36,605 nt of DNA, taken from contig JBBQTJ010000002.1 in assembly GCA_038213315.1 (NCBI GenBank), positions 1-36,605 of the forward strand. The letters are read 5' to 3'. Positions 1,746 through 35,395 of the stretch are shown here, one piece after another (position 1 is the first letter of the stretch; the number at the start of each line of letters is the position of its first letter). Position numbers and translations under genes: made by a program. The notes below the pieces were generated by a model. That model did not search any database. It saw only the letters and a list, made by a program, of their open reading frames with translations, and was not told the DNA's origin. The DNA is from Planctomycetota bacterium. Lineage in GTDB: Bacteria > Planctomycetota > UBA11346.

Positions 1746-3344
1746 CTAACCTCCCACGGGGAATTGAAGATGGAGCTGGCCGCCCGGCGGCAGGACCAGC
1801 GTGGGGAAGGCCAGGGCCAGCAGCACGCAGCAGACCGGGCGCTGGTCCACATCCCGCAGACGCTCGCCATCAACCCGGATCAGCAGGGCGCCGATGCCCT
1901 GGCTCAAGGTCGCTTTCAGGACCGCAGCCCCGGCCGCATCACAGCGCCAGCGCAGGGTGCGTTGCTGGACCACATCGGCCATGCCGGTGACCATCCGACC
2001 AACCCCATCCCGACCGACCGCCCAGGCCTCGACCAGCGCCGTGCCCTCCGCCTTGACTGCAGCTGGATCGAGAGGCGCCGAGAAAGAGGCCAGCAAACCG
2101 CCCTGCTGGAAGGTGGCGATGATCGCCGCGCCAGCGATGGGGCTTTCTGCCGGCGCCAGCTTCACCAGTCGGGTCAGTTTAGCCTCGAAGCCCGGGCCGG
2201 CCGGACCTTGGGCCCCGGAGGCACCATCGGCGCCCTTGGCTCCTGGCTGTCCAGCGGCACCGGCATCGCCTTTGTCGCCTTTGGCTCCCGGCTGTCCGGT
2301 AGTACCGGTATTGCCCTGGTCACCCTTGGGACCCGCCTGGCCGTTGGGCCCGGCCGCACCGACATCGCCTTTGTCGCCCTTGGCACCTGGCTGGCCAACG
2401 GCCCCGGCATCGCCGGTGTCACCCTTGTCTCCTTTCGCGCCTGGCTGGCCGTCAGCACCGATTGCACCGGGCATGCCTGGGGACCCAGACTGCCCCGGTG
2501 GACCAGCAACACCATTTGCTCCGACTGGCCCTAGTGGTCCCGCAGCGCCATCGGCACCGGCCGGGCCTTGCAGTCCGGCGGCGCCATCAGCGCCTGCGAG
2601 ACCTTGCGGGCCGGCGACACCGTCAGGGCCAACGGGGCCCGGTGCTCCCGCAGCGCCATCGGCACCGGCCGGGCCTTGGGGTCCGGCGGCGCCATCAGCG
2701 CCTGCGGGACCCTGCGGGCCGGCAGCACCGTCAACGCCGTCAGCGCCAGCTGGGCCCGGTGCTCCCGCAGCGCCATCGGCACCGGCCGGACCCGCCGGCC
2801 CCATGGCGCCACCGGCTCCATCGAAACGCCAGCGTCCGGCGCTGTCCTGATAAAAATTGCCGCTGTGTCCGTGGGCGGCGGGCACCAGCCACAAGGCCGG
2901 GTCCTGGGCGACCGTGATGGTGGCACCAGTGCGCGTCACCGTGCCGACGCCCAAGGCATCATCCAACACCGCCATGTCCATGGCCTGCACCACCACGACG
3001 GTCTGCGTGCGCACCAGGGTGGGTTGATCATCAATGCGCAGGGTCGGCTCGTCGGTATTGCTGCCCGCCACCACCACGCGCCAGGTGCCATCACCAGCAG
3101 GCAGGACCAGGGGCACCGCCGTCGTGACCCCGAGGCGGACGCCGGTGGCCGCAAAAATGACGCCAGGTGCAAGGGTCGCCGTGCCCGCCACCACGCTCAG
3201 CCGTAGTCCCCAGGCAATGCGGCCCAGCCCCAAGGCGGTGCGCAGGTCGACTACTGCCTCTGCCAGAGTTTGCTGGAGGTGGGTAAGGTGGGCCGGCGTC
3301 ACACGCAGGCCGTCACGGAAATTGGTGCGGGCGTCGGTGATCAT
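1746..3344 (-). CDS. collagen-like tail fibre / appendage protein
   Basis: N-terminus RTNFRDGLRVTPAHLTHLQ...LGLGRIAWGLRL resembles baseplate-anchoring N-termini of CIS fibre proteins. It is followed by 70 uninterrupted Gly-X-Y triplets and a ~145-aa globular C-terminal domain. ATGA overlap with the upstream gene. Confidence 0.85.
   Translation of the reverse strand: MITDARTNFRDGLRVTPAHLTHLQQTLAEAVVDLRTALGLGRIAWGLRLSVVAGTATLAPGVIFAATGVRLGVTTAVPLVLPAGDGTWRVVVAGSNTDEPTLRIDDQPTLVRTQTVVVVQAMDMAVLDDALGVGTVTRTGATITVAQDPALWLVPAAHGHSGNFYQDSAGRWRFDGAGGAMGPAGPAGADGAAGAPGPAGADGVDGAAGPQGPAGADGAAGPQGPAGADGAAGAPGPVGPDGVAGPQGLAGADGAAGLQGPAGADGAAGPLGPVGANGVAGPPGQSGSPGMPGAIGADGQPGAKGDKGDTGDAGAVGQPGAKGDKGDVGAAGPNGQAGPKGDQGNTGTTGQPGAKGDKGDAGAAGQPGAKGADGASGAQGPAGPGFEAKLTRLVKLAPAESPIAGAAIIATFQQGGLLASFSAPLDPAAVKAEGTALVEAWAVGRDGVGRMVTGMADVVQQRTLRWRCDAAGAAVLKATLSQGIGALLIRVDGERLRDVDQRPVCCVLLALAFPTLVLPPGGQLHLQFPVGG
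2190..2819 (-). repeat. Gly-X-Y collagen repeat tract (70 triplets) with DNA-level duplications
   Basis: 630 nt of G-X-Y codons. The block cccgcagcgccatcggcaccggccgg recurs near 2539, 2647 and 2764. Confidence 0.95.
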
Positions 3345-4951
3345 GGGGTGCGGTAGTAGACGGTGGCAGCGGAAATGGTGACTTGGCCGGCGCTGTGCAG
3401 GCGCAGTCGCAGACGCAGGGCGCCGCCTGCGATCTCGCCCCGGGCCGCAGTGGCAGATATGGCGGGGGTCAGGGTCACCACACCGCTGGCTGGTGCGGGG
3501 GTGAATCCGGGCGCCACCTGGGGCGCGCTTGATCCATGCAGCAGGGGCACCACGGCGGGGCGCAGATCATCGCTGCGCGGAGTTCCCAGGATGCGCAGCC
3601 GTCCGGCGGGGACGATGGCGTCGGGACCAAGCCGGGCGGCGACGTGCAGGGGCCGGAAGGGCGGACCAGGCAAGCTGCGCCGCAGGCGGATCGCGTCGGG
3701 CAACGCATCGCTGGTGACCTGGCTCATGGGCCAATCGCAGGCGCCGCGGGTGGCGGTGATCTCGACCCACCAGGTCGCACCCGGGGGGATCTTCACGGGT
3801 TTGGCGAGTTGCAGTTCGACCCAGCGTTCGCCGCCGACCGGATCCGCCGCGATGGGGGTGGGTTTGAAGCGGGCGGACGGGACCGGTGCGATGGGTAGAT
3901 CCAAAGTGCCCTGATGCAACACCGCGGCGAGTTCGGCTCCCAAGAAGCCCGGGGGAAGAACCAGGGGCAGACGGATGGCGAGCAATTCGCCCAGTGGAGC
4001 CAGCCAGGACGCCGGCAGGCGGGCCGCATAACTATGAGCAGGATCGATGACCAGTCGGGCCGCGCCGTTCACCAGCGGGTCCGGCAAGGGCCACGCGCGC
4101 CAGGCGGGCATGCGCCCCGCCACGGTCAGTTCAATGCGGACCACTTCCCACGTCGAGGACGCGGCTGGCAGCGGCAGGCTCGCCTCGACCTCAGCTTCGC
4201 TTTCCCCACCGACCACCAGCCCGGCCGGGGGCAGCGCCACCGCATGAACACGGATGTACGCAATGCTCAGGCTCAGACCCTGGCTGCACGGCGTACCGGT
4301 GCGCAGCGTCACGGCGGGGTTGGCGCCCCGGGCCAGCGCCGCCTGTAGTTCGGCGATCACCGGCACGGTAAAGGTAGCTTCAGGTGTGGCGGCGCTGCTC
4401 AGCTTCACTGGGCCGGGCCGGGACCAAGCACGCACCCCGGCGATCTCAAGGCTCAGGTCGGTCGGGACCCCCGGCATGGTCACGTCCAGAGCGGTACTGG
4501 CCACGGCGGCCGCGACCGCCGTGCTGAAGGTCAGCTCCAGCCGCTCTGACTGTACTTCGGCGAAGGAGATGGAACTGCCAGCCAACTGGGCGGCCGTCAG
4601 ATACACAGAGGTGAAGCCGGTACCGGCCCAGCGCCGCAGCGAGACCAGCGTCTTGCCACTGGGCAGGCTGAGCGACGAGACCGTGCGCAAGGCGCCGAAA
4701 TCCAAAACCACCACCGTGGAGTTCTCGCCATTGCGAACCTGGGCCACCTTGCCGGCGGCGATGACCCCGGCTTCCTTCACCGTGATCGTGGCGGTGGCCT
4801 CGGTGATGATCGCATCGGCAGGGATGGTGGTGACCTTGGTGGTCTCCACATCGCCCTCGAAGGTCATCAACGTCATGAAGAATGTCATGGGGTAGCTCGT
4901 GGTCTGCACCACGCCCCAGCCCATGTCCATCCCTGGCACCTCGGCGGGCAT
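3341..4951 (-). CDS. beta-rich hypothetical CIS accessory protein, possible jelly-roll/discoidin-like binding domains
   Basis: Start moved to ATG 4951 (TGAcATG coupling). Segments VVLDFGALRTVSSLSL...ISFAEVQSERLELTF and WVELQLAKPVKIPPGATWWVEI resemble galactose-binding-like sandwiches. Confidence 0.65.
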   Translation of the reverse strand: MPAEVPGMDMGWGVVQTTSYPMTFFMTLMTFEGDVETTKVTTIPADAIITEATATITVKEAGVIAAGKVAQVRNGENSTVVVLDFGALRTVSSLSLPSGKTLVSLRRWAGTGFTSVYLTAAQLAGSSISFAEVQSERLELTFSTAVAAAVASTALDVTMPGVPTDLSLEIAGVRAWSRPGPVKLSSAATPEATFTVPVIAELQAALARGANPAVTLRTGTPCSQGLSLSIAYIRVHAVALPPAGLVVGGESEAEVEASLPLPAASSTWEVVRIELTVAGRMPAWRAWPLPDPLVNGAARLVIDPAHSYAARLPASWLAPLGELLAIRLPLVLPPGFLGAELAAVLHQGTLDLPIAPVPSARFKPTPIAADPVGGERWVELQLAKPVKIPPGATWWVEITATRGACDWPMSQVTSDALPDAIRLRRSLPGPPFRPLHVAARLGPDAIVPAGRLRILGTPRSDDLRPAVVPLLHGSSAPQVAPGFTPAPASGVVTLTPAISATAARGEIAGGALRLRLRLHSAGQVTISAATVYYRTP

Positions 4952-4952
4952 G

Positions 4953-5444
4953 TCAGCCCGCCAGGCCGTTGAAGGCCTTGGCGGCACCCAACGCGACCAT
5001 CACGCTGTCCAGGTCGTCACCGGGGGTGGCGCCGATCGTAACGTTTTTGCTGCCCAGCTTTTGCAGGGCCTGGGTCCGCTCCGCGTCGGAGAGCGTCATA
5101 TTCTCTGCGTACTTGGCCACCAGATTGCTCATCACCTCGTCATCCTTGACGTAATCGTCATAGACTTTGCCCAGATTGTCGGCCTGCCACTTATTGTAGC
5201 CGCCAGTCACCGCGCCCGAGGGGATGGTCCGGCCATTGGCCAGGACGAGGTTCACGGTGGCGCCGCGGGCCAACTGAGTGCCCGCCTTGGGCGTCTGCGA
5301 CAGTACGCGTGGCGAGCTGTAGATCGTCTCGATGGTGCCGACGCTGCCCTCTTTGATGTTCACCTCGGCGACGGGACCATCGTTCCGGACGACGCGCTTG
5401 GCATCGAAGCGATTAGGCTCGTAGAAGGCAGTGAAGTTTGGCAT
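4953..5444 (-). CDS. hypothetical protein with the C-terminal half of a PASTA domain
   Basis: RVLSQTPKAGTQLARGATVNLVLANG matches the PASTA beta-strand signature. AAGGA RBS 8 nt before ATG 5444. Confidence 0.75.
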   Translation of the reverse strand: MPNFTAFYEPNRFDAKRVVRNDGPVAEVNIKEGSVGTIETIYSSPRVLSQTPKAGTQLARGATVNLVLANGRTIPSGAVTGGYNKWQADNLGKVYDDYVKDDEVMSNLVAKYAENMTLSDAERTQALQKLGSKNVTIGATPGDDLDSVMVALGAAKAFNGLAG

Positions 5445-5477
5445 GGTCAAAATCCTTGGTTCAGGCGACGCTCAGCG

Positions 5478-6191
5478 TCACTTGGTGATGGTGGTGGTGC
5501 CAATTTTCAGGCCAGCCTTGGTCAGGGCGGCCGTCGCTTCGGCCAAGGTCAAACCGGTCAGGTTGGGCACCGTGACCGCCGCTGGCTGCAACTCGGCGCT
5601 GACCACCAGACGGACCTGGGCGGTATTGGCCAAGGCGTAGGCCGCGGGCGCAGGATGCTGCCACAACACCACGGCGTTCTGGAACTGGGCCGGGGGGTTG
5701 AGCTTGGGTACCGCCTCGCCGCTGGCGTCAAAGATGCTGTCGATAGTCAGGGTCTTGGCGCCCAAAGCGGCCAGGGCCTGGGTCAGGGTGCGGCCAAAGA
5801 GGTCCGGCATGACCTGCTGATTCACGGTCAGCGAAACGGTGGCCTGGGTCGCCGCCGGCACGGTGATGTCGACGCTGGCATCGGCACAGCCGGGCGCACT
5901 GACCTTCAGCGACCAGGTGCCGTCGGTCAGGCCCGACAGTTGGTGCTTCACTTGGCCAGGGAACGGCGCGATGGCAGGGATCGGACGGCCACCTGCTGCG
6001 GGCACGGCGACCACGCGGGCGTCGGCACGGGCCGCGCCGCCGGCGGTGACCTCCACCGCCACGGCGTTGCCGCCCAGGGCGTTGACGGCGTCATAGAGCC
6101 CATTGATGGCGGCCGTGATGGCGTTCCACGCCTGGGCGGTGATGGGGCGTCCGGGATCGGCGGTGGCGAGGGCCGGCTTGGTCAAAGGCAT
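5478..6191 (-). CDS. PASTA-domain protein with a carboxypeptidase-regulatory/prealbumin-like beta-sandwich
   Basis: N-terminal PGRPITAQAWNAI plus helix; LSGLTDGTWSLKVSAPG sandwich; PASTA1 VMPDLFGRTLTQALAAL...VVLWQHPAP...VRLVVS; truncated PASTA2 VTVPNLTGLTLAEATAALTKAGLKIG. Confidence 0.8.
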   Translation of the reverse strand: MPLTKPALATADPGRPITAQAWNAITAAINGLYDAVNALGGNAVAVEVTAGGAARADARVVAVPAAGGRPIPAIAPFPGQVKHQLSGLTDGTWSLKVSAPGCADASVDITVPAATQATVSLTVNQQVMPDLFGRTLTQALAALGAKTLTIDSIFDASGEAVPKLNPPAQFQNAVVLWQHPAPAAYALANTAQVRLVVSAELQPAAVTVPNLTGLTLAEATAALTKAGLKIGTTTITK

Positions 6192-6213
6192 GGGGGCGGT
6201 CCTGAGAAGGAGT

Positions 6214-7761
6214 TCAGACGGGAACGGGTTCGGGGAGGGAGAGGCGGGTGCCGTGGATGATCAGACCATCTGGTTCGGCGCTGTCGGCGTCGCGCAGCAC
6301 GCCATCACCCAGGGTCCAGCGATCATCGGCATACTCGACGGCAAGGTACACGCCGGCTGGCCGCACACGGTCGAGGGCGAGGCGGACTCGCTCGCGGATC
6401 TCGATCTGGCCATCCCCATCCAGGTGGGAAAAGCGCATGGGCAGCCATAGGGTGCAGCGATAAGGCTGGCGCTCGCGCCAGGCGAAGCCCACGTCGGCGG
6501 CCGGGGCGTCGGCCGCATCAGCGGCCAGGGAGCCATTGAAGATGCCGGCCGCGAAAAGAGGAATCGCCGCAACGTCGACACCAGCTGATTCGGTACCGAA
6601 GCAGGCTTCGCGGACGAAGAATCTGAAGTTGGTGGTGCCGACGCGCAGCGAGATCGGCGGGGTCAAACCACCGGCGTGGGGCAGGGAACCATCGAGGGCC
6701 GAGGCCACCGGGCGGCATACGCCAAAGAGCGCGGCCCGGTCCGCGTAGGCAGTGGGATCCGCCGCATCGGCGAAGACGAAATCGATTCCGGTGGCGTCAT
6801 AGTCGACATCGGCGAACACGCCACCGTCGATGGCGAAGGCCAGATTACCGGCCTCGACACCGTCCAGTTCGACGATGCCGGACGAGCGGAACAGCACCTC
6901 TTGGCCGGCGGTCAGGACCTTGGCGTAGACCAGGGCCCGGCCCGCATTCACATCCACCACCATCGGCCACATGCAGCGGTCCTCTTTGGCCTTCACCAGG
7001 ATGTCGACCGGCACAGGGCCGAACCCCAAGCGCGCGATGGTGAAGTGCTGCCGGTGCGAACGGGGCACGGGTTCGAGGACCACATCCTTTTCAGGATTCT
7101 CTTCCAGGGCAAGCAGGTCGGTGCGCGGCGTGGGCGCGCCTACCGGTCGCAGGCGATCCTCGGTGTCGAGTACATGCCAGTAGTCATCGCGAGAGCGCCG
7201 CTGGCGGCCCGGTTTCAGGGCCAGCAAGGCTGCGGCGCCGCGCAACAGAGCGCCGGGACTTCCATTTCCAGAGCGGTGGACCGCGATCAGGTCGACCACC
7301 ACGCCCCGTTGCCGCTCAATAGTCCCGGCATTGCGGCCCAGCGCCGTGATGGCCTCGGCCATGCGCGCGACCACCTGTTCAGCGGTCTCGCTGCCGATGG
7401 CGGCCCAGACTCCGGCAGCTTGCCCGAGAATATCTGGCAGAGCCGCGACAGCAGCATCCCGTGCGTCCGCATCGCCCAGCAGGCCGTGCGCCAGGGCAGA
7501 GGCCGCCGCGAGGCGACGCATGCAGGGTTCAAGCAACACCGGACGGATGCCGTGCAGGGCCGCCAACATCAGCAGATCAGCCTGTTCTGCGACCTGACCC
7601 AGGCGATGGGCCGACCGTACCCGGCCCAGGTCGCCGGTGACGTGATCAAGATGCCCGGCCAGGCCCTCTACCACCGCACTGAACAGCGTGCCCGGCGCGT
7701 CCAACGCCAGATGGCGCGGGAAGCGTGACAGTACAGTGCGGGCGCGGGCGCTCAGGCTCAT
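6214..7761 (-). CDS. baseplate wedge protein, P2 gpI / T4 gp7-like, with large insertion
   Basis: Follows baseplate J with ATGA overlap (start 7761). Motifs DLLMLAALHGI, RQRGVVVDLIAVHRSGNGSPGAL and C-terminal LALDRVRPAGVYLAVEY. Confidence 0.7.
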   Translation of the reverse strand: MSLSARARTVLSRFPRHLALDAPGTLFSAVVEGLAGHLDHVTGDLGRVRSAHRLGQVAEQADLLMLAALHGIRPVLLEPCMRRLAAASALAHGLLGDADARDAAVAALPDILGQAAGVWAAIGSETAEQVVARMAEAITALGRNAGTIERQRGVVVDLIAVHRSGNGSPGALLRGAAALLALKPGRQRRSRDDYWHVLDTEDRLRPVGAPTPRTDLLALEENPEKDVVLEPVPRSHRQHFTIARLGFGPVPVDILVKAKEDRCMWPMVVDVNAGRALVYAKVLTAGQEVLFRSSGIVELDGVEAGNLAFAIDGGVFADVDYDATGIDFVFADAADPTAYADRAALFGVCRPVASALDGSLPHAGGLTPPISLRVGTTNFRFFVREACFGTESAGVDVAAIPLFAAGIFNGSLAADAADAPAADVGFAWRERQPYRCTLWLPMRFSHLDGDGQIEIRERVRLALDRVRPAGVYLAVEYADDRWTLGDGVLRDADSAEPDGLIIHGTRLSLPEPVPV

Positions 7762-9581
7762 GCGCTCACCGTGTCCTCGGTGGTGCCCAGACTGCGGATC
7801 CACGGCTGCTGGCTCGCATCCAGCGTGATGGTCAGGTCCTGGGCGATGGTCTTGAGGCCTTCATCCATGAACTCGGCGCGATAGCCGATGGTCGCGACCT
7901 CGTAATCTTCCTGCGGTGGCAGCAGACCCTTCAGCGAGGCCGGCGTGATGTCGGCAGCCATGCCGGCCAGCGCGGTGCCCAGGCGCGACAGCAGATCCAC
8001 GCGGATACGACCCAGTTCTGCGCCGGCTTCCCGGGCAGCGTAGAGGCCCTTGCGCGTGACCTTTATTTCCAGGTCCAGGGCCACCAGCGCCCCACGCATC
8101 AGCAATTCGATCCCGTCAGCCGCCAGCCGTGGTCGCCGCGTCCCCGGCGTCATCAGGTTGGTGCGTCCCCGACGCAGGAGATCGGCCATGCCGGCGCTCC
8201 ACGGGAAGAGCTCAAACGAGACGTCCTGTACGCCGTCCACCGCCATCACTGCCGCGACCAGGCGATTGTAGACCACCACCTCGCCGATTCCGAGTTCATC
8301 CACTGCCGCATCCAGCGCAGTTCGCACCACGGTGTCCAAGACCTGCTTTTGCGCCGCATCAAGATTGGCGCCAGCCGGCGTGACTACGATCTTCATCCCC
8401 AGGTCGTACCAGACGTCCTCGCCGACGGTCGAGGGCGCGGGACTGATTTCGCTCGGATCCATGCCCGCACCGGGCCCGACGCCAATAGCCGCCGCTTCCG
8501 GGACTACGAGATTGTGCACCACCCGCACGCCCGCCGGCCGCACCCGATGGATGGCTTCAAGGGCCGCACGCGCGTGATCCACATCCAGGTCGGCCGCGAT
8601 GGTGATGGTGATGGTGCCAGGGGCGGCGACGTGGTCCTCATCCACCAGCACATCCTGGGCTCTGATGCCGGCGATGCTGGTGAGCGCCCCGACGATGGCC
8701 CCAGTGGTGGCGGCTCCGCCGGTCTCAAGCGCGCGGGAGACGCGTCGCCGCAGCGCCTCGTCCTCTTCGACGGCGCCAGCAAAGCCCAGGTCCTGGGGAT
8801 TGATTGCCGCAGCGATGCCAAGGATGGGCCGATGGATGACCGACAGGGTACCGGACCGGGCCGCGCCCTTGGGCCCGTCGACCAACGCACTCACCGGCAC
8901 CGCCACCGACAGGGATCCGGCGCGCAGGGTACGCTCGGCAGTGGTCTCGACGGTGACGGGCGGCACGTCGGACGAACTGATACGCGCACCTGCCGGGATG
9001 ATGATGTCTGCCGGTGCGGGCGTGCTGCGGCTGAACACCACGTCGCCGCTGGCAGCGGCACGGGTGCGGCGGGGCATGCCCACCAAGGCCGCCACCTGAT
9101 CCAGATCACGACCGCTCGCAGTGTCGAGGAACGCGGCCTCATAGACCGCTTCCAGCTGACGCGACAGCACGGCGTATTCGCGGGCGAAGGATTCCGCCAG
9201 GGTGCGCACCACCGAACCCGGATTGCGATCGGTCAGGCGCGGCGCCGCGACCACCCCGGGGCGACGTTCGTAGCTGACCCAGAAGCGGCTGCCCAGATCG
9301 GGGATGGTGGCGCCGGGCAGGGGCAGGCCCTCGCCATTCAGACGCCAGCTCAGCACGCCTTCGGCCGAGACCTCCACGTCGGTTCCGGGCATGAAGCGCT
9401 GGTAGTCGCCGTCATGCAGGCCGTGCAGGCGCACCGTCGCCGGCAGCACGTCGACGCCCAGTCCGAGTCGGAAGGGTGCATGCTCAGGCAGATAGTTGAA
9501 CTCCTCGCGCACCACCCCGCCGGTCAAGGCGCTGAGCAGGTCGTCGACGAAGACGCCATAGGGCTCGGCGGCGTAGGTCAT
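7758..9581 (-). CDS. baseplate J / gp47 family protein
   Basis: GSVVRTLAESFARE...FLDTASGRDLDQVAALVGMPRR...ASGDVVFSR...IIPAGARI...EEDEALRRR...RVRPAGVRV. Confidence 0.92.
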   Translation of the reverse strand: MTYAAEPYGVFVDDLLSALTGGVVREEFNYLPEHAPFRLGLGVDVLPATVRLHGLHDGDYQRFMPGTDVEVSAEGVLSWRLNGEGLPLPGATIPDLGSRFWVSYERRPGVVAAPRLTDRNPGSVVRTLAESFAREYAVLSRQLEAVYEAAFLDTASGRDLDQVAALVGMPRRTRAAASGDVVFSRSTPAPADIIIPAGARISSSDVPPVTVETTAERTLRAGSLSVAVPVSALVDGPKGAARSGTLSVIHRPILGIAAAINPQDLGFAGAVEEDEALRRRVSRALETGGAATTGAIVGALTSIAGIRAQDVLVDEDHVAAPGTITITIAADLDVDHARAALEAIHRVRPAGVRVVHNLVVPEAAAIGVGPGAGMDPSEISPAPSTVGEDVWYDLGMKIVVTPAGANLDAAQKQVLDTVVRTALDAAVDELGIGEVVVYNRLVAAVMAVDGVQDVSFELFPWSAGMADLLRRGRTNLMTPGTRRPRLAADGIELLMRGALVALDLEIKVTRKGLYAAREAGAELGRIRVDLLSRLGTALAGMAADITPASLKGLLPPQEDYEVATIGYRAEFMDEGLKTIAQDLTITLDASQQPWIRSLGTTEDTVSA

Positions 9582-10048
9582 GCTCCGGACTCCAGACTGA
9601 AGGGGACCACCAGATTGCGCGGGTCGTCGTGATCGATGAGGCGGACAGTGACCACGATACGCACCATGTCGCGGCGGCTGGCATCCTGCGTCACCGTGCA
9701 GGATTCAATTTTGTCGATGCGCGGCTCGTAGCCCAGGCATTCCAAGACATGGCGCTTGATCATGGAGCGGGTGCGTTCGGTGTTGGGTTCACCGAGCAGC
9801 TCGTGGTGGCGCGAGCCGTAGTTGTCGTGTCCCAGGGCGCTCAGTTCGCCGCGCCGGGTTTTGAGCCGGTTGACCAGCAACTGGTCCGCGGCCGCCAAGT
9901 CCTCGACCACGGCCACATCGCGCAGGCCGGGCCGGCGGAACACCGCCAGGTCGGCTTCTTCCCACCAGCCCGAGGCGCCGCCAAACTCCAGGCCCAGATC
10001 ACGACCCAGGCGCTTCATCAGAATATCAAGATCGGCCCGCGGTTTCAT
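9578..10048 (-). CDS. gp25 / GPW-like baseplate (sheath initiator) protein
   Basis: Start moved to ATG 10048 (ATGA overlap). RLKTRRGEL...HDNYGSRHHELLGEPN...ECLGYEPRIDKI is the gp25 signature. Confidence 0.9.
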   Translation of the reverse strand: MKPRADLDILMKRLGRDLGLEFGGASGWWEEADLAVFRRPGLRDVAVVEDLAAADQLLVNRLKTRRGELSALGHDNYGSRHHELLGEPNTERTRSMIKRHVLECLGYEPRIDKIESCTVTQDASRRDMVRIVVTVRLIDHDDPRNLVVPFSLESGA

Positions 10049-10386
10049 GGCGCGTTCCCATCGGTGATCCACGGCGCCGCAGGCGGCCCAAGGATGGTAA
10101 GGATGCCGCTGCCCGAGGGGATCTTGTCGCCCAGCCGCACCAGTCCGTTGCCGGCCACGGTTACCCCGCTGCTCATGCCCACGCTGCCAATAGTCAGGGG
10201 GTAGGGCACCCCGGTGACCGAATTGATCATCTGGCAGATGCTGCCGGCGGTGGCGACGGGCATGCCGCCGGCCAGGGCAGCGGTCTGCGTCACCGCCAAG
10301 ATCACGCCGCTGTCCGGCGCGCCGGCGGCACCGGGCGAAAGCATCACCGCACAGCCGATTGATACGGGATTTCCGGGCATGGTCAT
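10045..10386 (-). CDS. PAAR-like spike tip protein (divergent)
   Basis: ~113 aa, Gly/Pro-rich, directly after the spike gene. Repeats GNPVSIG, GGMPVATAGS and GNGLVRLGD. GTG 10389 or ATG 10380 are alternative starts. Confidence 0.65.
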   Translation of the reverse strand: MTMPGNPVSIGCAVMLSPGAAGAPDSGVILAVTQTAALAGGMPVATAGSICQMINSVTGVPYPLTIGSVGMSSGVTVAGNGLVRLGDKIPSGSGILTILGPPAAPWITDGNAP

Positions 10387-11036
10387 CACGCGGGGTTGAA
10401 GGAGGTGGTACCGTTGATCGACACGCTGCCGCCCTTGAGCGTCGCCGAGCCATCGCCCTGGACGGTGACGTTGGGCGCCTTCAAGGTGGCGCCACTGCCA
10501 CCTTCAAGATTCAGCGCGCCTGCCGCCTTCAGGGTCAGATCACCGCCCGCTTCGATGGTGACCGCACCATCGGCTTCGATGGTCACGGTGCTGCTCCCCA
10601 GGATGATGCTCAGCTTGCCATCCTGCAGGGTCAGGCTGTTGCCGCTGGGCATTTCCAGGTGAAAGCGTCGGGCGGCCTCATCGGCCTCATCGGGGACGTG
10701 ATAGACCAGCTCGCCCGGCTTCGCGTCCGGCGGCGCATGATCGGCATCATGCAACACGCCCATGACCACGGCTTGATCCAAGTCGCCGCTCAGAAAGCCG
10801 ATCACCACCAGGTTGCCCACCAGGGGTAAGGCTGACAGGCCCAGACGGCCGACCGCCACGGGGACCTGCTGCAATTCCAGGCCAGACGAGTTCAGCCGCA
10901 CATTGACCGACAAGTGGTGCTCGCCGCTGCCGCCATCATTGCTGAAGGCCTGGGTGATCACGCCCAGCTCCAGCCCGCGATGGGCGTCAAGTTCATCGCG
11001 TACCACGGCGCGGATGGCGGGGACGATGCGGCTCAT
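10386..11036 (-). CDS. baseplate spike protein (gpV / gp5 OB-fold plus beta-helix)
   Basis: LELGVIT...VNVRL...VPVAVGRLGLSALPLVGNLVVIGFLSGDLDQAVVMGVLH, then short beta repeats (VTIEADGAVTIEAGGDLTLKAAGALNLEG). Confidence 0.9.
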   Translation of the reverse strand: MSRIVPAIRAVVRDELDAHRGLELGVITQAFSNDGGSGEHHLSVNVRLNSSGLELQQVPVAVGRLGLSALPLVGNLVVIGFLSGDLDQAVVMGVLHDADHAPPDAKPGELVYHVPDEADEAARRFHLEMPSGNSLTLQDGKLSIILGSSTVTIEADGAVTIEAGGDLTLKAAGALNLEGGSGATLKAPNVTVQGDGSATLKGGSVSINGTTSFNPA

Positions 11037-11989
11037 GCCACGCCCTCGAAATCCAACCAGGTGGCGAAGCCGTTGGCATCCAGGACGTGAGTCACCCCGA
11101 GCAGACGGGCATCGACGTCACCATCCAGCAGGTCACCAAGAGTCACTAAATCTCCCGGGCGCAGGGCGGCCTGTCCCCAGCACAGGGCGTCGCCGCTGAC
11201 GGTGCTGCGGACCGCCGCATCGGCGGCGGCCTTGGCCACGCTGCGGGCGGCATTGCGATCACGGATCGCCCCCGGAACCCACGCATCACGCTCGGGCGTC
11301 TCGCCAGCGGGTGAGGCCAAGGGCAGGAACCAGTGATCCGCCCCGGCTTCGCTGCCGGCCCCGGCCGGACCGACCGGCGCCGCCGTTGGCGCATCTTCGC
11401 TCTGCGCGGCGCGCCAGCTGATCAGTTCGGCGCCCCGCCGCAGCGTAGTGGCGGCCGGTCCGCTGGCCGGCGGGCGGACATGCAGCGAACCATCAGCGGC
11501 GCTGGCCACTTCGCAGCCGGACAGCCGGGCGAGGCGTAGCAGGTGGGCCCACCGCGAGCGCCGGTCGTCGGCATGAAAAATGCCCAGGTCCAAGTCAGGA
11601 CCAACCGTGCCCGCGGTGACGCCGGCATCGCTGAGCAGGTCATTGACGATCTGCGCCGCGCCCTGACCCACCCACGCCTGGGCAGCACGCCTACGGCTCA
11701 GCTGCCAGGATGGGGCAAAACATTCCACCACCGCGCCCGTCGGGCGGCGAGCCACCGTCACCACGGTACCGGTGAAGACGTCTTGGGCGTCATCGTCAAA
11801 ACCCAAGGCCACCGCCACCGTGCCACCGGCCGCAGGCACGGTGGGCGCCAGCGCATGCAGTTCCAACACGCAGCGGTCATGGGCCGGGCCCAGGCCCAGG
11901 GTGACCTCGACGCGCAGCAGGGCCGCTTCCGGAGCGGTCAGGCTCTGGCCATCGATAGTGATGGTGGCGATGGGCGTGAAGCGGCTCAT
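11033..11989 (-). CDS. baseplate hub protein (gpD / gp27-like; VgrG N-terminal equivalent)
   Basis: VAVALGFDDDAQDVFTGTV, SRWAHLLRLARLSG, GQAALRPGDLVTL...VTHVLDANGFATWL. Confidence 0.85.
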   Translation of the reverse strand: MSRFTPIATITIDGQSLTAPEAALLRVEVTLGLGPAHDRCVLELHALAPTVPAAGGTVAVALGFDDDAQDVFTGTVVTVARRPTGAVVECFAPSWQLSRRRAAQAWVGQGAAQIVNDLLSDAGVTAGTVGPDLDLGIFHADDRRSRWAHLLRLARLSGCEVASAADGSLHVRPPASGPAATTLRRGAELISWRAAQSEDAPTAAPVGPAGAGSEAGADHWFLPLASPAGETPERDAWVPGAIRDRNAARSVAKAAADAAVRSTVSGDALCWGQAALRPGDLVTLGDLLDGDVDARLLGVTHVLDANGFATWLDFEGVA

Positions 11990-13059
11990 GGGCTGTCCAC
12001 GTTCAGGCCCTGACGGCGCACCTCGGCCAACAGGACCCGCTCAAGCGTGCGGCCGAATTGCAGATCATTGGTCGGAGTTACGGGCCGGGGCAAGTCGCCC
12101 ACTGGCACCGTCGGGGGCGCGCTCCCGACCTGCACAGCAAAGCCACCGACAGCGGGCACGGTGCCCGGCATGGTGAGCGGACCAGGCAAGCTTGTCGCAA
12201 CACGTCCACGTTCTGCGGCAATGGGGTCCGAGGCGGTCTCGGCAGAGTTCGTACCGTGATCGCCAGTCGTCGGCCAGCGGCGCAGTAGATCGCTCAGGGC
12301 CGACCCGCGTTGCCCGGTGGCGCGCACGGGACGTTCCTCGATCGGGGCGAATGACGGTGCAGTGGGGCTTGGTTTGGCGCTCGTCGCTGGCGTCGCCCGG
12401 GCACTGGCCAACTCGACGGAGGGGGGGCGATTGATCGGCGGGGCGGTGGCTGCGCTGCGGACCTGATCCTTCCGGCTGGCCAGCCGCACTGCCGCTGGTT
12501 CGGCCATGGCCCGCAAACGCTGGGCATCCACCGTCACCCGGGCCGCGGGCGAGGCTAGACGCCGCGCCAAGTCGGCGGTCGCCATCAACACGTGGGCGGT
12601 CAGGTGTGCAGAGCTCACAGGCAGTGCAGGAATGATCACCGCTGGCCGCGAGTCAGGAGGCACCGGCGGAACCGCACTCATGGGCAGCACTGGCGTGGTT
12701 GCCTGCGCCACGCGGAAACGTGGCTGGGCCGGCAAAGGAACTGGTGCAGTGACTTCTGCGGTAGGGGTGTCGATAGTGGCACTGGAAAGACGCCGCACGG
12801 CCTGGGGGAACTTTCCCTGGCGCGGCGGCACTGCCGCCAGTCGACGCGTTGCAGTGGATATCGGCTCGGCCTGCGCGGTCGCAGGCGCACTGTACTCGCG
12901 GTCTAAGGCCGCGAGCGGATCCGGGGCCAGGCCCGCCAGCCGGTCGGCCGCACGATGCACCAGTTCCGCAGTCTCGACGCCGCCGGCCAACGGAGCCCAG
13001 CGGGCCCCATCGGTAGCTAAGCGGTCAAGCATGCGTCGCAGGCGGCGATCGGGGGACAT
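11986..13059 (-). CDS. Pro/Ala-rich low-complexity hypothetical protein at the usual tape-measure position
   Basis: Coupled to both neighbours; disordered-looking centre; helical C-terminus DLQFGRTLERVLLAEVRRQGL. Confidence 0.7.
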   Translation of the reverse strand: MSPDRRLRRMLDRLATDGARWAPLAGGVETAELVHRAADRLAGLAPDPLAALDREYSAPATAQAEPISTATRRLAAVPPRQGKFPQAVRRLSSATIDTPTAEVTAPVPLPAQPRFRVAQATTPVLPMSAVPPVPPDSRPAVIIPALPVSSAHLTAHVLMATADLARRLASPAARVTVDAQRLRAMAEPAAVRLASRKDQVRSAATAPPINRPPSVELASARATPATSAKPSPTAPSFAPIEERPVRATGQRGSALSDLLRRWPTTGDHGTNSAETASDPIAAERGRVATSLPGPLTMPGTVPAVGGFAVQVGSAPPTVPVGDLPRPVTPTNDLQFGRTLERVLLAEVRRQGLNVDSP

Positions 13060-13061
13060 GG

Positions 13062-13547
13062 TCAGCCCTTGGCCCCGACGGTGGCGCGGTCACGAGCCGC
13101 CATTTCCAGGTACAACAGCACCTGGCCGACGCTTAGATTGGCGCATTGCTCTGGACTCCACCCGAACTCCCGTGCGAGGGTGAAGCAGGCTTTGGCCAAG
13201 GGCGCCTGCACCGCCTGCTCAAGCTCATCGGCGGACATGCCCAGACCACTGATGCGGTTCACCTCCTGTAAGAGGTGCTGCACCAGTCCGGCATGCAGGC
13301 GGTTGGCCTGATCCAGCGTCAGTGCAGGCTCGACCAGAGCCTGCTGCACCATCAGCACCCCGGTGAGATGGCCGTCATCCTTGGCCGCCTTGGCGATGCG
13401 CGCCAAGTCGGCCAGCCGCAAGGGGCGCAGCACCACCTCGCCCGCCGCTGCATCATCGCCGGCAGCGGGATCGAGGACGCGTCCCGGTACTGCCACCCGA
13501 TGGGTGGCAGTACCGGCCAACAGCAGATCATCGGCGCTCAGGCTCAC
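13062..13547 (-). CDS. tail assembly chaperone (XkdN/gpG-like fused to a gpT/gpE'-like tail)
   Basis: GTG start 13547 (GTGA overlap with the tube stop). EVVLRPLRLADL...ALVEPAL...EVNRISGL, then LAREFGWSPEQCANLSVGQVLLYL. Confidence 0.7.
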   Translation of the reverse strand: MSLSADDLLLAGTATHRVAVPGRVLDPAAGDDAAAGEVVLRPLRLADLARIAKAAKDDGHLTGVLMVQQALVEPALTLDQANRLHAGLVQHLLQEVNRISGLGMSADELEQAVQAPLAKACFTLAREFGWSPEQCANLSVGQVLLYLEMAARDRATVGAKG

Positions 13548-14044
13548 GCGCTCGCATCCTCGGCCGCGATCCACAGGCCCTTGAAGGTGACTTCTTCCAT
13601 CACGAAGTCGTCTTCGGGCATGGTGAAGGCCCAACCGTCGAGCTTCACGCCATGCACGGTGACGGTGGCGCTGTTGCCAGAGAAGGCGCCGTTTTCCATG
13701 CGCAGGCTCAGATTGAAGGTCGGGCTGACGAAGCTGCCGGCGGGACGGGTGCCGCTGCCGCCTTCACCCAGCATCAAGCGCAGCAGGGCGCCATTGACGT
13801 GCGCCCGGCCGATGGTGCCGGTGATGTTGACGTTACCGGCGCGCAGTTCGGTGGCGTAGCGCTGGCCGACCTCGTGGAAGGGCCGGATGTCGCTGCTGAC
13901 GCGCACCGACACGCCGGTGGCGCGGCCGATGGGGGTCAGTTGGTAGGTTTCGGCGATGGCCTTGGCGGCGTCGCCCTCGGGGCCCGCCTCGACAGCGACC
14001 GAGATCGAGCCGTCGAGACCGGTGAAGATGTGATTATTGGGCAT
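13544..14044 (-). CDS. tail tube protein
   Basis: 166 aa directly after the sheath; IGRATGVSVRV...HEVGQRYATELRAGNVNITGTI...VTVHGVKLDGWAFTMPEDDFVMEEVTF. Confidence 0.85.
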   Translation of the reverse strand: MPNNHIFTGLDGSISVAVEAGPEGDAAKAIAETYQLTPIGRATGVSVRVSSDIRPFHEVGQRYATELRAGNVNITGTIGRAHVNGALLRLMLGEGGSGTRPAGSFVSPTFNLSLRMENGAFSGNSATVTVHGVKLDGWAFTMPEDDFVMEEVTFKGLWIAAEDASA

Positions 14045-14082
14045 GGGTGACCTTGGAAGTGAAGGTTGGTGCGTTCAGGTTA

Positions 14083-15483
14083 TTATTGGAGGTTCATGGT
14101 TACGCGGATGAAATCGATGCTGAAGGTCGGCATCAAGGTCATCACCACTTGGCAGATGCCGCGGATCTCGTCCGCGCGGCTGGCCTTCACCTCAAGCTGG
14201 TAGCTGACCAGCATTTCATCGACCACCATCTGCGACAGGAAGCCATCAAGCGTGGCCTTGAGCGCCGCCCGGATGCGGGCGTTGTTGAGCCGGCCGATAT
14301 AGGGATCAGACCCCATGCGCACGCCCGTCTTGGCATAGTCCACGGTACGGCGGATCGAGATCTGGCTGAAGGCTGCGTTCTCGGTGGTGATCCCTTTGAC
14401 CACCTGGAAACCGAACTTCTGCCGCACCAGCAGGACGCGCTGCTGCAGCAGCTTCTTGTAGATGGTGGTGTTGTAGGCCCCCGAGAGACCATCGATGGGC
14501 AAGGTCTTATTGGTCAGGCTGATGTGCGGGGCCAGCGTGGCGATCTTGCCCGCCACCACGGCGGCAAGGTAGCTGGGCGGCAGATTGACAACCTTGCCGT
14601 CAGCGGCATCGGTCGTCAGCAGGCCGGGTCCGACCAGGATGATGCGGTCATCGTTGATGGTGCCCGCATCGGTCTCTACATCGGCCAGGGCGGCGCTCTT
14701 GGCCCCGAGCACGGCGATGCGCTCGCGGCCTTCATTTTCCGTCGCCTCAAGGTGGGCGGCCACGGCGCCCTTGGCCTGGTCGGCGCCGAAGCCGGCCACC
14801 ACCACGATGTTCACCGGCTGGTCGGTCAACTTGGCCAGGCCGGCGGCCAGATCGGCGGCGCTGACATTGGCGCCATCGCTGCCGCCGGCGAAGGGTGTAG
14901 CCGCGGGCTTGGACACCAGTGCCGCCGCGCCATTCTGCACGGCTCCGATAGTGACCAGGGTGCTGGTGGCCAGGGCGGTCGCCAAGGCCTGGGTGGTGGC
15001 ACCCGAGAACTCCTCCTTCACCGCACCCATGGTCAGCGCGAGGATCCAGGGATCCGCCACGGTCGCCTGGGTCAGCGTCCAGCGGATGCCATGGGCCCAG
15101 GTGCCGGCCGCCTTGGCGGTCATGGTGAAGCCGGCGGCATCACCGACCGTCTTGACCTCGGCACTGGCGGCCACCGGCGCGCCGTTGGCGATCCGCACCG
15201 CGTACACCGCGCGGGCACCGCCGGCGAAGACCTGCTCCAAGGTGCGGACCAGGCTCAGCGGGTTGCTGGTCAGGCGCGGTTCGGCCAGGGCATCATAAGC
15301 GCCGAAGGCATCCAAGGCATCACTGTAGCCGCCCAGGGCGACCACTTCGTTCAACGGACCGCGGGCGGCGGTGCCGACGATGCCGACATTGCCGGTGGCG
15401 ATGGACCCGACACCGATCAGGCCTTCGGCCCGCACCTCGATGTAGGTGGATGGGAGGATCATCTCAGCGATGGCTTCGCTCAT
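14083..15483 (-). CDS. contractile tail sheath protein
   Basis: LPSTYIE...GIVGTAARGPLNE...VFAGGARAVYAVRI...AAVVAGKIA...SLTNK...ISIRRTVDY...YIGRLNNARIR...PTFSIDFIRVTMNL. Confidence 0.95.
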   Translation of the reverse strand: MSEAIAEMILPSTYIEVRAEGLIGVGSIATGNVGIVGTAARGPLNEVVALGGYSDALDAFGAYDALAEPRLTSNPLSLVRTLEQVFAGGARAVYAVRIANGAPVAASAEVKTVGDAAGFTMTAKAAGTWAHGIRWTLTQATVADPWILALTMGAVKEEFSGATTQALATALATSTLVTIGAVQNGAAALVSKPAATPFAGGSDGANVSAADLAAGLAKLTDQPVNIVVVAGFGADQAKGAVAAHLEATENEGRERIAVLGAKSAALADVETDAGTINDDRIILVGPGLLTTDAADGKVVNLPPSYLAAVVAGKIATLAPHISLTNKTLPIDGLSGAYNTTIYKKLLQQRVLLVRQKFGFQVVKGITTENAAFSQISIRRTVDYAKTGVRMGSDPYIGRLNNARIRAALKATLDGFLSQMVVDEMLVSYQLEVKASRADEIRGICQVVMTLMPTFSIDFIRVTMNLQ

Positions 15484-15507: not shown

Positions 15508-16347
15508 TCAGGGATGAGTGATGGTGAAAGCCGTGGGCAGCGCGCCCGGGCGGGGCGTGAGGGCGACTTGAACGCCGCGGATGGGGCCGCCGCCAGTGAT
15601 GACGCGCGGATCCGAATATTCGAAGCGGCAGCGCCAGCTCTGCCGCCGCAGTAGGGTGGCCCCGCCCGGGGTGCCGGGTGGGGCCATCGCACCCCAGGCG
15701 AGGGGAGCCACCTGGCTCAGTCCGCTGACTCGCTGGCCCGCCAGCGCGGCGGCCACCTGACGGCTGAGGGTATCCAGGGCGGCGGCACCGTTGGCGAACA
15801 CCTCGGCTTGCAGGGTGGCGGTGAAGCGCGCCGTGTCGGCTTCCCACTGGCCCAGGAAATAGGTGACGTTCAACGTTCCGACGTTCGGCAAGGCAGTGCC
15901 AAAGCGGGCGATGCCCGTCACCCGGTCGACCTGCACCTGGTTCGCCGCCGGTGCCCCGGCCACCACGGTGATCACCGTCGGTCCGATGGACATCGTCACT
16001 GCGCCCGGGGCCAAGGGGCCCACGTCGCCGCCATCGGCATCCACCAGCGGACTGTGCGGCAATTGCAAGGTCCGGCGATCCGCCGACAGCAGCGTGACGG
16101 TCTCGGCCCCGAAGCGCAGGACCGGATCATTCAGGGCAATGGCCACCGACAGAGGAAGGGCTCCCGTGGTGAGGCCAGCGGGCTGGCCACCGACGCCGGC
16201 GCCAAGGGGCGAGGCCTCGATCACTGACAACACCACCGCTGGCAGGTCGGCTACCACCCGCGGCATGGTCGCCGTGACCTTGGTGGCCGCCGGCAGGACC
16301 GCAGTCAGGTGCGCAGCGACCGCATCGATGAGGCGATGGAGCAGCAT
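15508..16347 (-). CDS. putative tail terminator / cap protein (gp15/Afp16-like position) with inserted beta domain
   Basis: Directly upstream of the sheath. N-terminal helix plus DLPAVVLSV, LQAEVFA...LDTLSRQVAAAL and RFEYSDP...GPIRGV; insertion VDRVTGIARFG...GTLNVTY. Confidence 0.55.
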   Translation of the reverse strand: MLLHRLIDAVAAHLTAVLPAATKVTATMPRVVADLPAVVLSVIEASPLGAGVGGQPAGLTTGALPLSVAIALNDPVLRFGAETVTLLSADRRTLQLPHSPLVDADGGDVGPLAPGAVTMSIGPTVITVVAGAPAANQVQVDRVTGIARFGTALPNVGTLNVTYFLGQWEADTARFTATLQAEVFANGAAALDTLSRQVAAALAGQRVSGLSQVAPLAWGAMAPPGTPGGATLLRRQSWRCRFEYSDPRVITGGGPIRGVQVALTPRPGALPTAFTITHP

Positions 16348-16349
16348 GG

Positions 16350-34412: not shown

Positions 34413-34657
34413 GGGTTTCCGATGGTGGTCAAGCTCCAGTCAGACCGGCCTTTTCCCCAGGTTTTCCACCTTGGCCTTGCTGACGTCACAGGCCGGCACC
34501 GCCCTGCGGCAGCGCTAAGCAGTGGCCATTCCAGGCTTGCTTTTCTTCTTAAAACGACGCTATTTCCCGCATCTTTACCTTCCAGCGATGTGTCAAGATG
34601 CGATCAAGACGGGATGAAGCAGATGCAAATGCCCGTTCAGCCCCGGAGTTTTCCACA

Positions 34658-35395
34658 GTGACCCTCTTCCGCGTCGATCGACTCACCAAGACGTTCGGCA
34701 GCCGCACGGTGGTGGCCGGGGTTTCCCTCGAAGTCGCCCCCGGCGAGATCGTCGGACTGCTGGGGGCGAACGGCGCCGGAAAAAGCACCACCTTCCGCAT
34801 GGTGGTGGGCTTGCTGGCGGCGGATGCCGGACGCATCGAATTTCGTGGCCAGGATATCACCCACCTGCCGATGTATGCCCGCGCCCGCCTGGGGATGGGC
34901 TATCTGGCCCAAGAACCGACCGTCTTCACCCAGTTGAGTGTGGCCGACAATATCCGCATCATTCTGGAGCAGCACCACCCGCGCAGCGAGCACGACCAGC
35001 GCCTGAGCGCCCTGTTGGGTGAGCTCAATCTCACTCATCTGCGCGACAGCCTCGCCGCGGGTCTGTCTGGCGGCGAGCGCCGTCGCCTTGAAATCACCCG
35101 CGCCCTGGTGGTCGAACCCAGGCTGCTGTTCTTCGACGAGCCCTTCGCTGGTGTCGACCCCAAAAGCCGCGGCGACATCATTTCGATCGTGCGCACCCTG
35201 CGCGAGCGCGGCGTTTCCGTGCTGATCACCGATCACAACGCCGAAGCCATCCTGGGTCTGGTCGACCGCCTGTATGTGATCCAGTCGGGCAGCAATCTGG
35301 CCGCCGGCACCCCGGCAGAGGTCATCGCCAATCCGGCGGTGCGGCAAGCCTATCTGGGTGAGGACTTCGTCATGCCGACCGCCTTCCCGTCATGA
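34658..35395 (+). CDS. lptB: LPS export ABC transporter ATP-binding protein
   Basis: GANGAGKST, LPMYARARLGMGYLAQEPTVF, LSGGERRRLEI, DEPFAGVDP, ITDHN, VRQAYLGEDF; GTG start 34658. Confidence 0.93.
   Translation: MTLFRVDRLTKTFGSRTVVAGVSLEVAPGEIVGLLGANGAGKSTTFRMVVGLLAADAGRIEFRGQDITHLPMYARARLGMGYLAQEPTVFTQLSVADNIRIILEQHHPRSEHDQRLSALLGELNLTHLRDSLAAGLSGGERRRLEITRALVVEPRLLFFDEPFAGVDPKSRGDIISIVRTLRERGVSVLITDHNAEAILGLVDRLYVIQSGSNLAAGTPAEVIANPAVRQAYLGEDFVMPTAFPS

Follow-up and report, generated by a model that had tools for sequence, protein, structure and literature searches.

The long tail fiber of phage T4 (gp34-gp35-gp36-gp37) is a multi-subunit assembly joined by small connector proteins, and in chaperone-usher pili a subunit completes the incomplete fold of its neighbor with a strand, a process known as donor-strand complementation. 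PASTA domains occur in the Ser/Thr kinases PknB, PrkC and StkP and in class B penicillin-binding proteins (PBPs), where they form an extracytoplasmic array behind a transmembrane helix and accompany a kinase or transpeptidase domain. In this study, we examine two adjacent genes, here called A and B, that lie in a contractile-tail operon of a Planctomycetota bacterium (assembly GCA_038213315.1, contig JBBQTJ010000002.1) and that appear to hold one PASTA domain between them. Gene A (237 amino acids, 5478-6191) and gene B (163 amino acids, 4953-5444) are open reading frames (ORFs) on the minus strand of the window, our term for the whole stretch of 36,605 nucleotides analyzed, which is one entire contig (G000:C2) of a metagenome-assembled genome (MAG) with a completeness of 81%.

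With the kinases and PBPs, the pair has in common the PASTA profile and, in residues 124-200 of A, the fold itself, and the halves carried by A and B together span the whole PASTA profile. The differences lie in the setting of the domain: A and B are devoid of a transmembrane helix, a kinase and a transpeptidase, their genes stand in a contractile-tail operon of a host with lipopolysaccharide export, and one domain extends across two polypeptides. The resemblance to the T4 fiber and the pili is one of working, in that separate products would be joined end to end and that in the pili a strand completes a neighbor's fold; there is no homology, the shared fold here is PASTA with half in each chain, and no usher or chaperone is evident. 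The fibers of extracellular contractile injection systems (eCIS) that carry the anchors eBAP1-5 are, in the portion of Nachmias et al. (Nat Commun 2026, PMC12923769) covered, likewise encoded directly after Baseplate_J or a second wedge gene, and likewise open with a short, conserved helical segment that serves as the N-terminal anchor and precedes modular domains. That portion lists eBAP2 fibers for Roseateles and related Burkholderiales genera, in which the closest relatives of A occur, and A may belong to the eBAP2 class, beside which it is set by host genera only. The supplementary Pfam table of the same paper, as far as covered, holds 14 PASTA rows, at least six of them at residues ~880-1050 of long DUF6519 (eBAP5) fibers, and these PASTA-bearing fibers are ~1000 amino acids long as against 237 for A. 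The words PASTA and "split" are absent from the main text covered, and a domain split over two genes was not found there. Literature searches on PASTA together with contractile injection systems, contractile baseplates or tail fibers returned nothing relevant within a coverage that excludes most subscription journals, and the joining of tail parts by a split domain was not found in the literature searched.

Gene A matches the Pfam PASTA family (PF03793) in two stretches with 43 bits (E 4.4e-11), against a curated cut-off of 23.2 bits, and gene B matches it with 26-27 bits (E 4e-6 to 9e-6); 37 of the 38 B-family members match at E<=0.01. The first stretch of A corresponds to residues 124-200 (5592-5822, minus strand, as for all features of A and B), which an AlphaFold2 (AF2) model built on a 46-row alignment, with a predicted local distance difference test (pLDDT) score of 84.8, folds as a whole PASTA domain with a long beta2-beta3 loop, one helix being packed on a small sheet. 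In VIA-align this segment superimposed on the PASTA domains of PknB, PrkC, StkP and PBP1 with overall Z scores of 8.2-8.9 (PknB 5e12_B: Z 8.9, root-mean-square deviation (rmsd) 3.0 over 65 residues; PrkC 3py9_A: Z 8.8), and PknB PASTA entries were among the Foldseek matches of the A model (2kuf, E 2.2e-3). Residues 41-123 (5823-6071) form a transthyretin-like or CarboxypepD_reg-type beta-sandwich, which VIA-align matched to 3e8v_A (Z 10.1, rmsd 2.1 over 78 residues) and to carboxypeptidase D domain II (Z 9.5); the Pfam CarboxypepD_reg match, at E 0.0016, is below cut-off. Residues 1-40 (6072-6191), a putative baseplate anchor, consist of the motif G-x-P-[IV]-T-A-Q-A-W-N and a helix spanning residues 18-39, and the positions G14, P16, T18, A19, Q20, W22 and N23 do not vary among the 46 homologues aligned.

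A sequence search of solved structures returned no match for A. Neither A nor B matched a PHROG family, Pfam found no kinase or transpeptidase domain in either, and the NCBIfam model PknB_PASTA_kin was matched with 31 bits against a cut-off of 450. The highest Kyte-Doolittle mean over 19 residues is 1.09 for A and 1.08 for B, and neither protein has a transmembrane-like or signal-like stretch. Much of what an earlier, sequence-only reading of this DNA had claimed is borne out by these results: it had placed PASTA signatures in two adjacent genes, which the Pfam scan finds above cut-off in both and the structural comparison upholds for A; it had described both products as free of signal peptides and transmembrane helices; and it had likened the start of the first, PGRPITAQAWN (residues 13-23) with its helix, to a fiber anchor, to which the seven invariant positions now add.

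The second PASTA stretch of A lies at the extreme C terminus (residues 206-233) and covers positions 1-28 of the 64 in the Pfam profile. The segment concerned, residues 203-237 (5481-5585), is the N-terminal half of a PASTA domain, consisting of a strand, a helix and a strand, and the chain ends there. The match of B covers profile positions 25-63 only, by residues 35-71 in a numbering that depends on the start chosen; B is listed as 4953-5450, and its likely start is the ATG at 5444, which gives 163 amino acids. Residues 39-71 of B (5232-5330) supply the C-terminal half of the domain, with two strands (...RVLSQTPKAGTQLARGATVNLVLA...). The same division emerged when the two pieces were compared by hhalign with the whole PASTA domain of A, the A tail aligning with its first half (columns 3-30, probability 94.6, E 7e-8) and residues 39-70 of B with its second half (columns 44-76, probability 88.6, E 2.7e-6). 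Together, the complementary profile halves and the hhalign alignments indicate that one PASTA domain is divided between two genes, and the usual PASTA trait of one contiguous domain per chain is absent from this second copy.

The remainder of B is a four-helix domain at residues 88-160 (4965-5183; helices 91-98, 103-115, 120-132 and 145-159). The AF2 model of B has a pLDDT of 75.5, with residues 1-17 below 50 and a variable N terminus, and its fold gave no informative match in Foldseek against pdb (best E 1.4) or in VIA-align (best Z 4.3). Scans of Pfam, PHROG and NCBIfam found no family besides PASTA and no chaperone family in B. Among solved structures, a sequence search with B returned weak rows only, including the PASTA kinase 3py9 (E 0.06) and SMC3 (E 0.015), the latter probably a chance match. 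An Atlas search returned PASTA clusters only, at 0.90, and a BFVD search gave domain-level matches to phage tail proteins only, together with one phage protein annotated "PASTA_pknB domain".

A domain cut in two could also arise if a nonsense mutation or a sequencing error had interrupted a single gene, or if programmed read-through or frameshifting joined A and B into one protein. A and B do share a frame within the window, and two long chains exist in the family (P0084 and P0135, the middle of the latter being apparently out of frame). At the A-B junction (5445-5480), however, the TGA that ends A (5478-5480) is followed after one codon by a second in-frame TGA (5472-5474) and then by AAGGA (5453-5457), a Shine-Dalgarno-like sequence 8 nt ahead of the ATG of B. 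The arrangement also recurs widely. A word-based search returned 34 homologues of A (213-243 amino acids, 39-100% identity), and the 15 that were aligned all stop just past the half-domain's conserved "GL-x-[LVI]-G". When genomes were scanned with the A profile and one genome was kept per species, A stopped after the half-domain in each of the resulting 34 loci, which span several phyla, and the next gene held the other half, "...RVVSQSI-x-x-GT-x-V-x-x-GT-x-VDLVLA". One of these loci (L035) has frameshifts in both A and B; the other 33 and the window make up 34 clean pairs. In all 34, B starts with ATG, and 33 have a Shine-Dalgarno-like site. The gap between A and B varies from 1 to 108 nt, the frame offset is 0, 1 or 2 in 15, 14 and 5 pairs, respectively, and A ends with TGA in 26, TAG in four and TAA in four. 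When 1.84 billion representative proteins of any length were searched with a profile, 30,065 hits were obtained at E<=0.001, mostly generic PASTA or Ig-repeat proteins; among all proteins retrieved, 77 have the N-terminal motif of A, and 63 of these stop at a common point, no more than 14 residues from the half-domain. A conserved split with varying offsets, gaps and stop codons therefore rules out a recent nonsense mutation, read-through or frameshifting, and we regard any explanation in terms of a broken or recoded gene as very improbable. B, judged by its own start and ribosome-binding signals, is a separate gene.

Structure prediction suggests that the two halves meet. Residues 122-237 of A were modelled with B by ESMFold2, using unpaired alignments of 46 and 38 rows, and the complex scored 0.63 (0.64, 0.62 and 0.63 in individual runs), compared with 0.00 for the best control. 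A score of 0.63 is reached by 116 of 157 solved complexes and by 2 of 215 mismatched pairs, counts that hold only roughly with unpaired alignments such as these. The runs had at least 93% of their contacts in common, with a partner pLDDT of at least 70 and 105-110 confident contacts. The predicted interface brings residues 202-219, 223 and 227-236 of A together with residues 44-50, 52-69, 71 and 154-162 of B, that is, the two half-domains plus the last helix of B. Modelled alone, the A tail is a helix only, with no strands past residue 197, and B alone forms strands at 45-51 and 65-70 at middling confidence, its first 50 residues having a pLDDT of 36-66 and its N terminus being disordered.

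The two halves also go together across loci. A metagenome scan seeded with A variants that lack the half-domain gave 11 loci. All eight with a typical A have a downstream B; six of these show the B motif, and in two B is cut by the contig end and was matched by B-family queries in tblastn. In the other three (L037, L038 and L039; two distinct sequences), the A half-domain is missing, and neither the B motif nor tblastn searches with ten queries from the B family (E<=1e-3) revealed a B gene. The A half-domain and gene B, present jointly in typical loci and absent jointly from the variants, therefore occur together or not at all, although the independent variant loci are few. The A variants, including P0126, P0131, P0132, P0138 and P0146, retain the anchor, the sandwich and the whole PASTA domain and have, in place of the half-domain, a K/D/E/T-rich tail of 100-140 residues ending in "RVF[IV]P..RP.VG....EP". 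In the three variant loci, two other genes lie between the A variant and the homologue of the gene that follows B in the window, which encodes 548 amino acids. In L037 (region 4001-6737), the only one of the three that was scanned, one of them encodes a 263-residue protein that Pfam does not match, and the other a RimK-like ATP-grasp enzyme (PF08443, E 1.4e-7). As an idea only, that enzyme may modify or cross-link the K/D/E/T-rich tail.

Apart from the 63 proteins that end at the half-domain, the 77 with the N-terminal motif include three that end 15-40 residues beyond it, six with the K/D/E/T-rich tail in its place, one borderline case (P0124), one with a garbled tail, the long chain P0135, one protein with about eight whole PASTA repeats (P0169, 717 amino acids) and one fused A-B protein (P0084, 400 amino acids). 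In P0084 the C-terminal part is B-like (hhalign probability 96.8, E 3e-10), and a proline-rich linker lies between its two PASTA halves. A separate word search for longer, fused forms returned only a generic PASTA-repeat protein of 877 residues. P0169 carries its ~8 repeats on the same N-terminal anchor and sandwich, like a beaded shaft, and P0099 (286 amino acids), with the same anchor and sandwich, ends in two tandem half-PASTA segments.

We favor, with moderate confidence, the reading that A and B form a two-piece appendage of the baseplate in which trans-complementation of a PASTA domain holds the pieces together. The two proteins would be subunits of one short appendage on a phage-tail-like contractile injection system. 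The invariant motif and the helix at the N terminus of A would fasten it to the baseplate, from which it would reach outward through the beta-sandwich and the whole PASTA domain to the incomplete one (strand, helix, strand). There, B is predicted to donate the two missing strands, so that a complete PASTA fold would arise from two chains, and this fragment complementation would fix the four-helix domain of B at the distal end of A. Speculatively, that distal domain may hold the next gene product, the 548-residue protein. On this view, the PASTA fold would serve for construction and joining, not necessarily for sensing the cell wall. More tentatively, the split PASTA domain may be a natural plug-and-socket connector by which a conserved A stalk takes exchangeable distal parts. 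There would then be at least two ways of finishing the stalk: with a separate B that completes the half-domain, or with the K/D/E/T-rich tail, perhaps modified or cross-linked by the ATP-grasp enzyme encoded next to it.

Several points weigh against the favored reading. The complex score may arise because the model simply knows a PASTA fold when it meets one, and that likeness is the very thing claimed. In 30 distinct A-B pairs, analyzed by mutual information (MI) with average product correction, the best 25 contacts were not enriched among high-MI pairs (Mann-Whitney p 0.20), although one pair (231-65) ranks third of 1056 by MI. Covariation is uninformative here because the contact columns, most of which show no variation at all, are nearly invariant. 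The fused protein P0084 is a singleton cluster from one 1617-base contig and could be an assembly or gene-calling artefact rather than a natural fusion. Attachment of the A N terminus to the baseplate is deduced from position and conservation, and the 529-residue product of the gene directly upstream of A, at the second baseplate-wedge position, has no Pfam, PHROG or NCBIfam match. A different possibility is that the half-domains never meet and are degenerate remnants, with A and B acting independently or with other partners. Adjacent genes often do not encode proteins that bind each other, the covariation is not significant, and the complex score expresses model confidence only. Yet the halves are complementary to within four profile positions, they co-occur in 42 of 42 typical loci, B is absent from all three loci without the half-domain, and the complex scores far above its controls; we consider this possibility improbable.

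Alternatively, B could be an assembly chaperone that transiently completes the unfinished domain of A while A folds or oligomerizes and is missing from the finished particle. Small genes right behind phage fiber genes often encode fiber assembly factors, and the helical part of B is without a known fold. In that case, however, A would keep a permanently incomplete domain; in addition, B matches no PHROG or Pfam chaperone family, the predicted interface is large and makes up a domain core rather than a cap, and A and B occur as one chain in P0084, albeit a singleton. A purely transient role for B is rather unlikely in our estimation.

The sequence-only reading had proposed a short fiber that either recognizes the peptidoglycan of a target or tethers the particle to a cell wall. 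A short baseplate-attached appendage is still the most economical explanation of a pair found in the same place in 34 of 34 loci. The two PASTA signatures are not, however, a pair of independent sensors: one domain is divided between both proteins, which points to a structural joint and not to a ligand sensor. PASTA domains of PknB and PrkC do bind muropeptides and lipid II, as described in the sections of PMC6428115 and PMC5786024 covered, and the PASTA domains at residues ~880-1050 of long DUF6519-type eCIS fibers in PMC12923769, in the part covered, are distal, where binding modules sit. A also contains one whole, well-modelled PASTA domain, and binding of peptidoglycan, muropeptides or lipid II would be compatible with a split joint. 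On the other side, the second PASTA domain is predicted to serve as a joint between subunits, the pair has at its far end the helical domain of B rather than a PASTA domain, and P0169 strings about eight repeats on the same anchor in a manner that resembles a shaft of beads. The carriers are mostly diderm by label. The host itself is diderm, as had been read from its lptB gene, which proves genuine (34598-35395; TIGR04406, 306.8 bits against a cut-off of 240). Lineages that are, by label, mostly diderm offer no particular ground for expecting a tether to the wall of the producing cell. It is possible that PASTA binds the exposed wall of a Gram-positive target; recognition of peptidoglycan is not needed to explain the data, and as the function of the appendage we consider it unlikely.

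The 34 genome loci are labelled as Burkholderiales, other Beta-, Gamma- and Alphaproteobacteria, Sorangium cellulosum, Desulfococcaceae, Pyrinomonadaceae, Gemmatimonadaceae and some MAGs labelled as Actinobacteria, for which the bin label could be mistaken. In all, carriers are labelled as at least five phyla, mostly of diderm lineages, and they include the cultured strains Sorangium cellulosum So0157-2 (L007) and Neoroseomonas lacus CGMCC 1.3617 (L025). Among 48 genomes of the window's own order, the A family is found in the genome of the window and in one weak hit to the sandwich alone (E 7e-4, inside an ORF of 1315 amino acids). The closest relatives of A, with up to 72% identity, come from Rubrivivax/Roseateles-type Burkholderiales. 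Near-absence from its own order, combined with Burkholderiales relatives, suggests that the whole locus has spread by horizontal transfer. A had no match in 50,697 phage records, and a pattern scan of IMG/VR was also empty.

The contractile-tail operon, as identified by Pfam, occupies the left half of the window on the minus strand. Its sheath gene (14083-15483; Phage_sheath_1, E 1e-9) is followed by the tube gene (13544-14044; Phage_tube_2, E 0.0016, below cut-off). A hub-like gene (within 9578-15483) is part of the contractile core, which further includes the spike (10386-11036; PF04717, E 2e-5) and a gp25-like sheath initiator (Sheath_initiator, within 9578-10453; PF10934, E 1e-8). The Baseplate_J-like wedge protein (7758-9581; PF04865, E 3.2e-14) and the 529-residue protein (6214-7803), which is syntenic in related loci, come next, directly upstream of A. 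Since a single operon unites genes for sheath, tube and spike with gp25-like and Baseplate_J-like ones, the locus has the composition of a contractile injection system of the phage-tail-like kind. An extracellular system of the Afp/PVC type is told from a prophage tail or another class by the lack of capsid and terminase genes and by the presence of a cap (DUF4255; Pvc16_N) and an AAA+ ATPase (Afp15); none of the ORFs scanned on the 36.6-kb contig matched any of these four. The placement of A and B right behind the wedge genes, as the sequence-only reading had it, is confirmed in the sense that they follow Baseplate_J and the second-wedge-position gene, and they do so in 34 of 34 loci. None of 14 homologues of the 529-residue protein matched Tail_P2_I or any wedge family, and one gave a sub-threshold hit to DUF7214. 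The order of hub, spike, gp25, Baseplate_J, 529-residue protein, A, B, 548-residue protein and collagen-like protein is retained across related loci, which makes A and B core components of this lineage rather than cargo.

Downstream of B, the 548-residue ORF (3341-4951, minus strand) has its likely ATG at 4951, one base past the B stop, and is syntenic in all 34 genome loci listed. Its product has no family, and Atlas gave only weak leads to F5/8-type-C or CBM-like clusters (scores <=0.86; TM score <0.3). The gene at 1746-3344 (minus strand) encodes a collagen-repeat, fiber-like protein of 532 amino acids (Pfam Collagen, E 5e-32; PHROG tail-fiber families, E 2e-41), the ~175-residue N-terminal domain of which is conserved across loci and begins "F-x-DGLRVT-x-x-HL-x-HLQ". 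An anchor common to A and this fiber was considered: in hhalign this start is in register with the "G-x-PVTAQAWN" of A, but the alignment (E 0.026, probability 1.9%) is not significant. Beyond the fiber gene lie a gene for 78 amino acids and a BNR/sortilin-like gene truncated by the contig end. In the ORF list, the gp25-like gene encodes 291 amino acids, the first ~145 of which are Arg-rich and overlap the spike gene; its true start is probably near an internal Met ("MKPRADLD..."), because the family match and the similarity across loci begin there. Upstream of the sheath gene (15508-20230 and 20852-21703, minus strand), three ORFs of 279, 1076 and 217 amino acids have no family match in Pfam, PHROG or NCBIfam, and they adjoin a gene for a protein with FHA and HATPase_c_2 domains that is possibly regulatory.

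Appendages decide what contractile injection systems bind, and engineered eCIS are being re-targeted by swapping fiber parts. A conserved joint made of one domain in two chains would add a new principle to the ways in which such appendages are built and re-tipped, and it might provide a possible natural tag pair for adding tips and an engineering handle. If the split domain is indeed a plug-and-socket connector, no earlier natural example of two polypeptides building one PASTA fold would precede it, and with Sorangium cellulosum So0157-2 and Neoroseomonas lacus CGMCC 1.3617 in culture, the idea of a joint is directly testable. The locus also cautions that not every PASTA match is a peptidoglycan sensor: here the fold apparently acts as bead and clasp.

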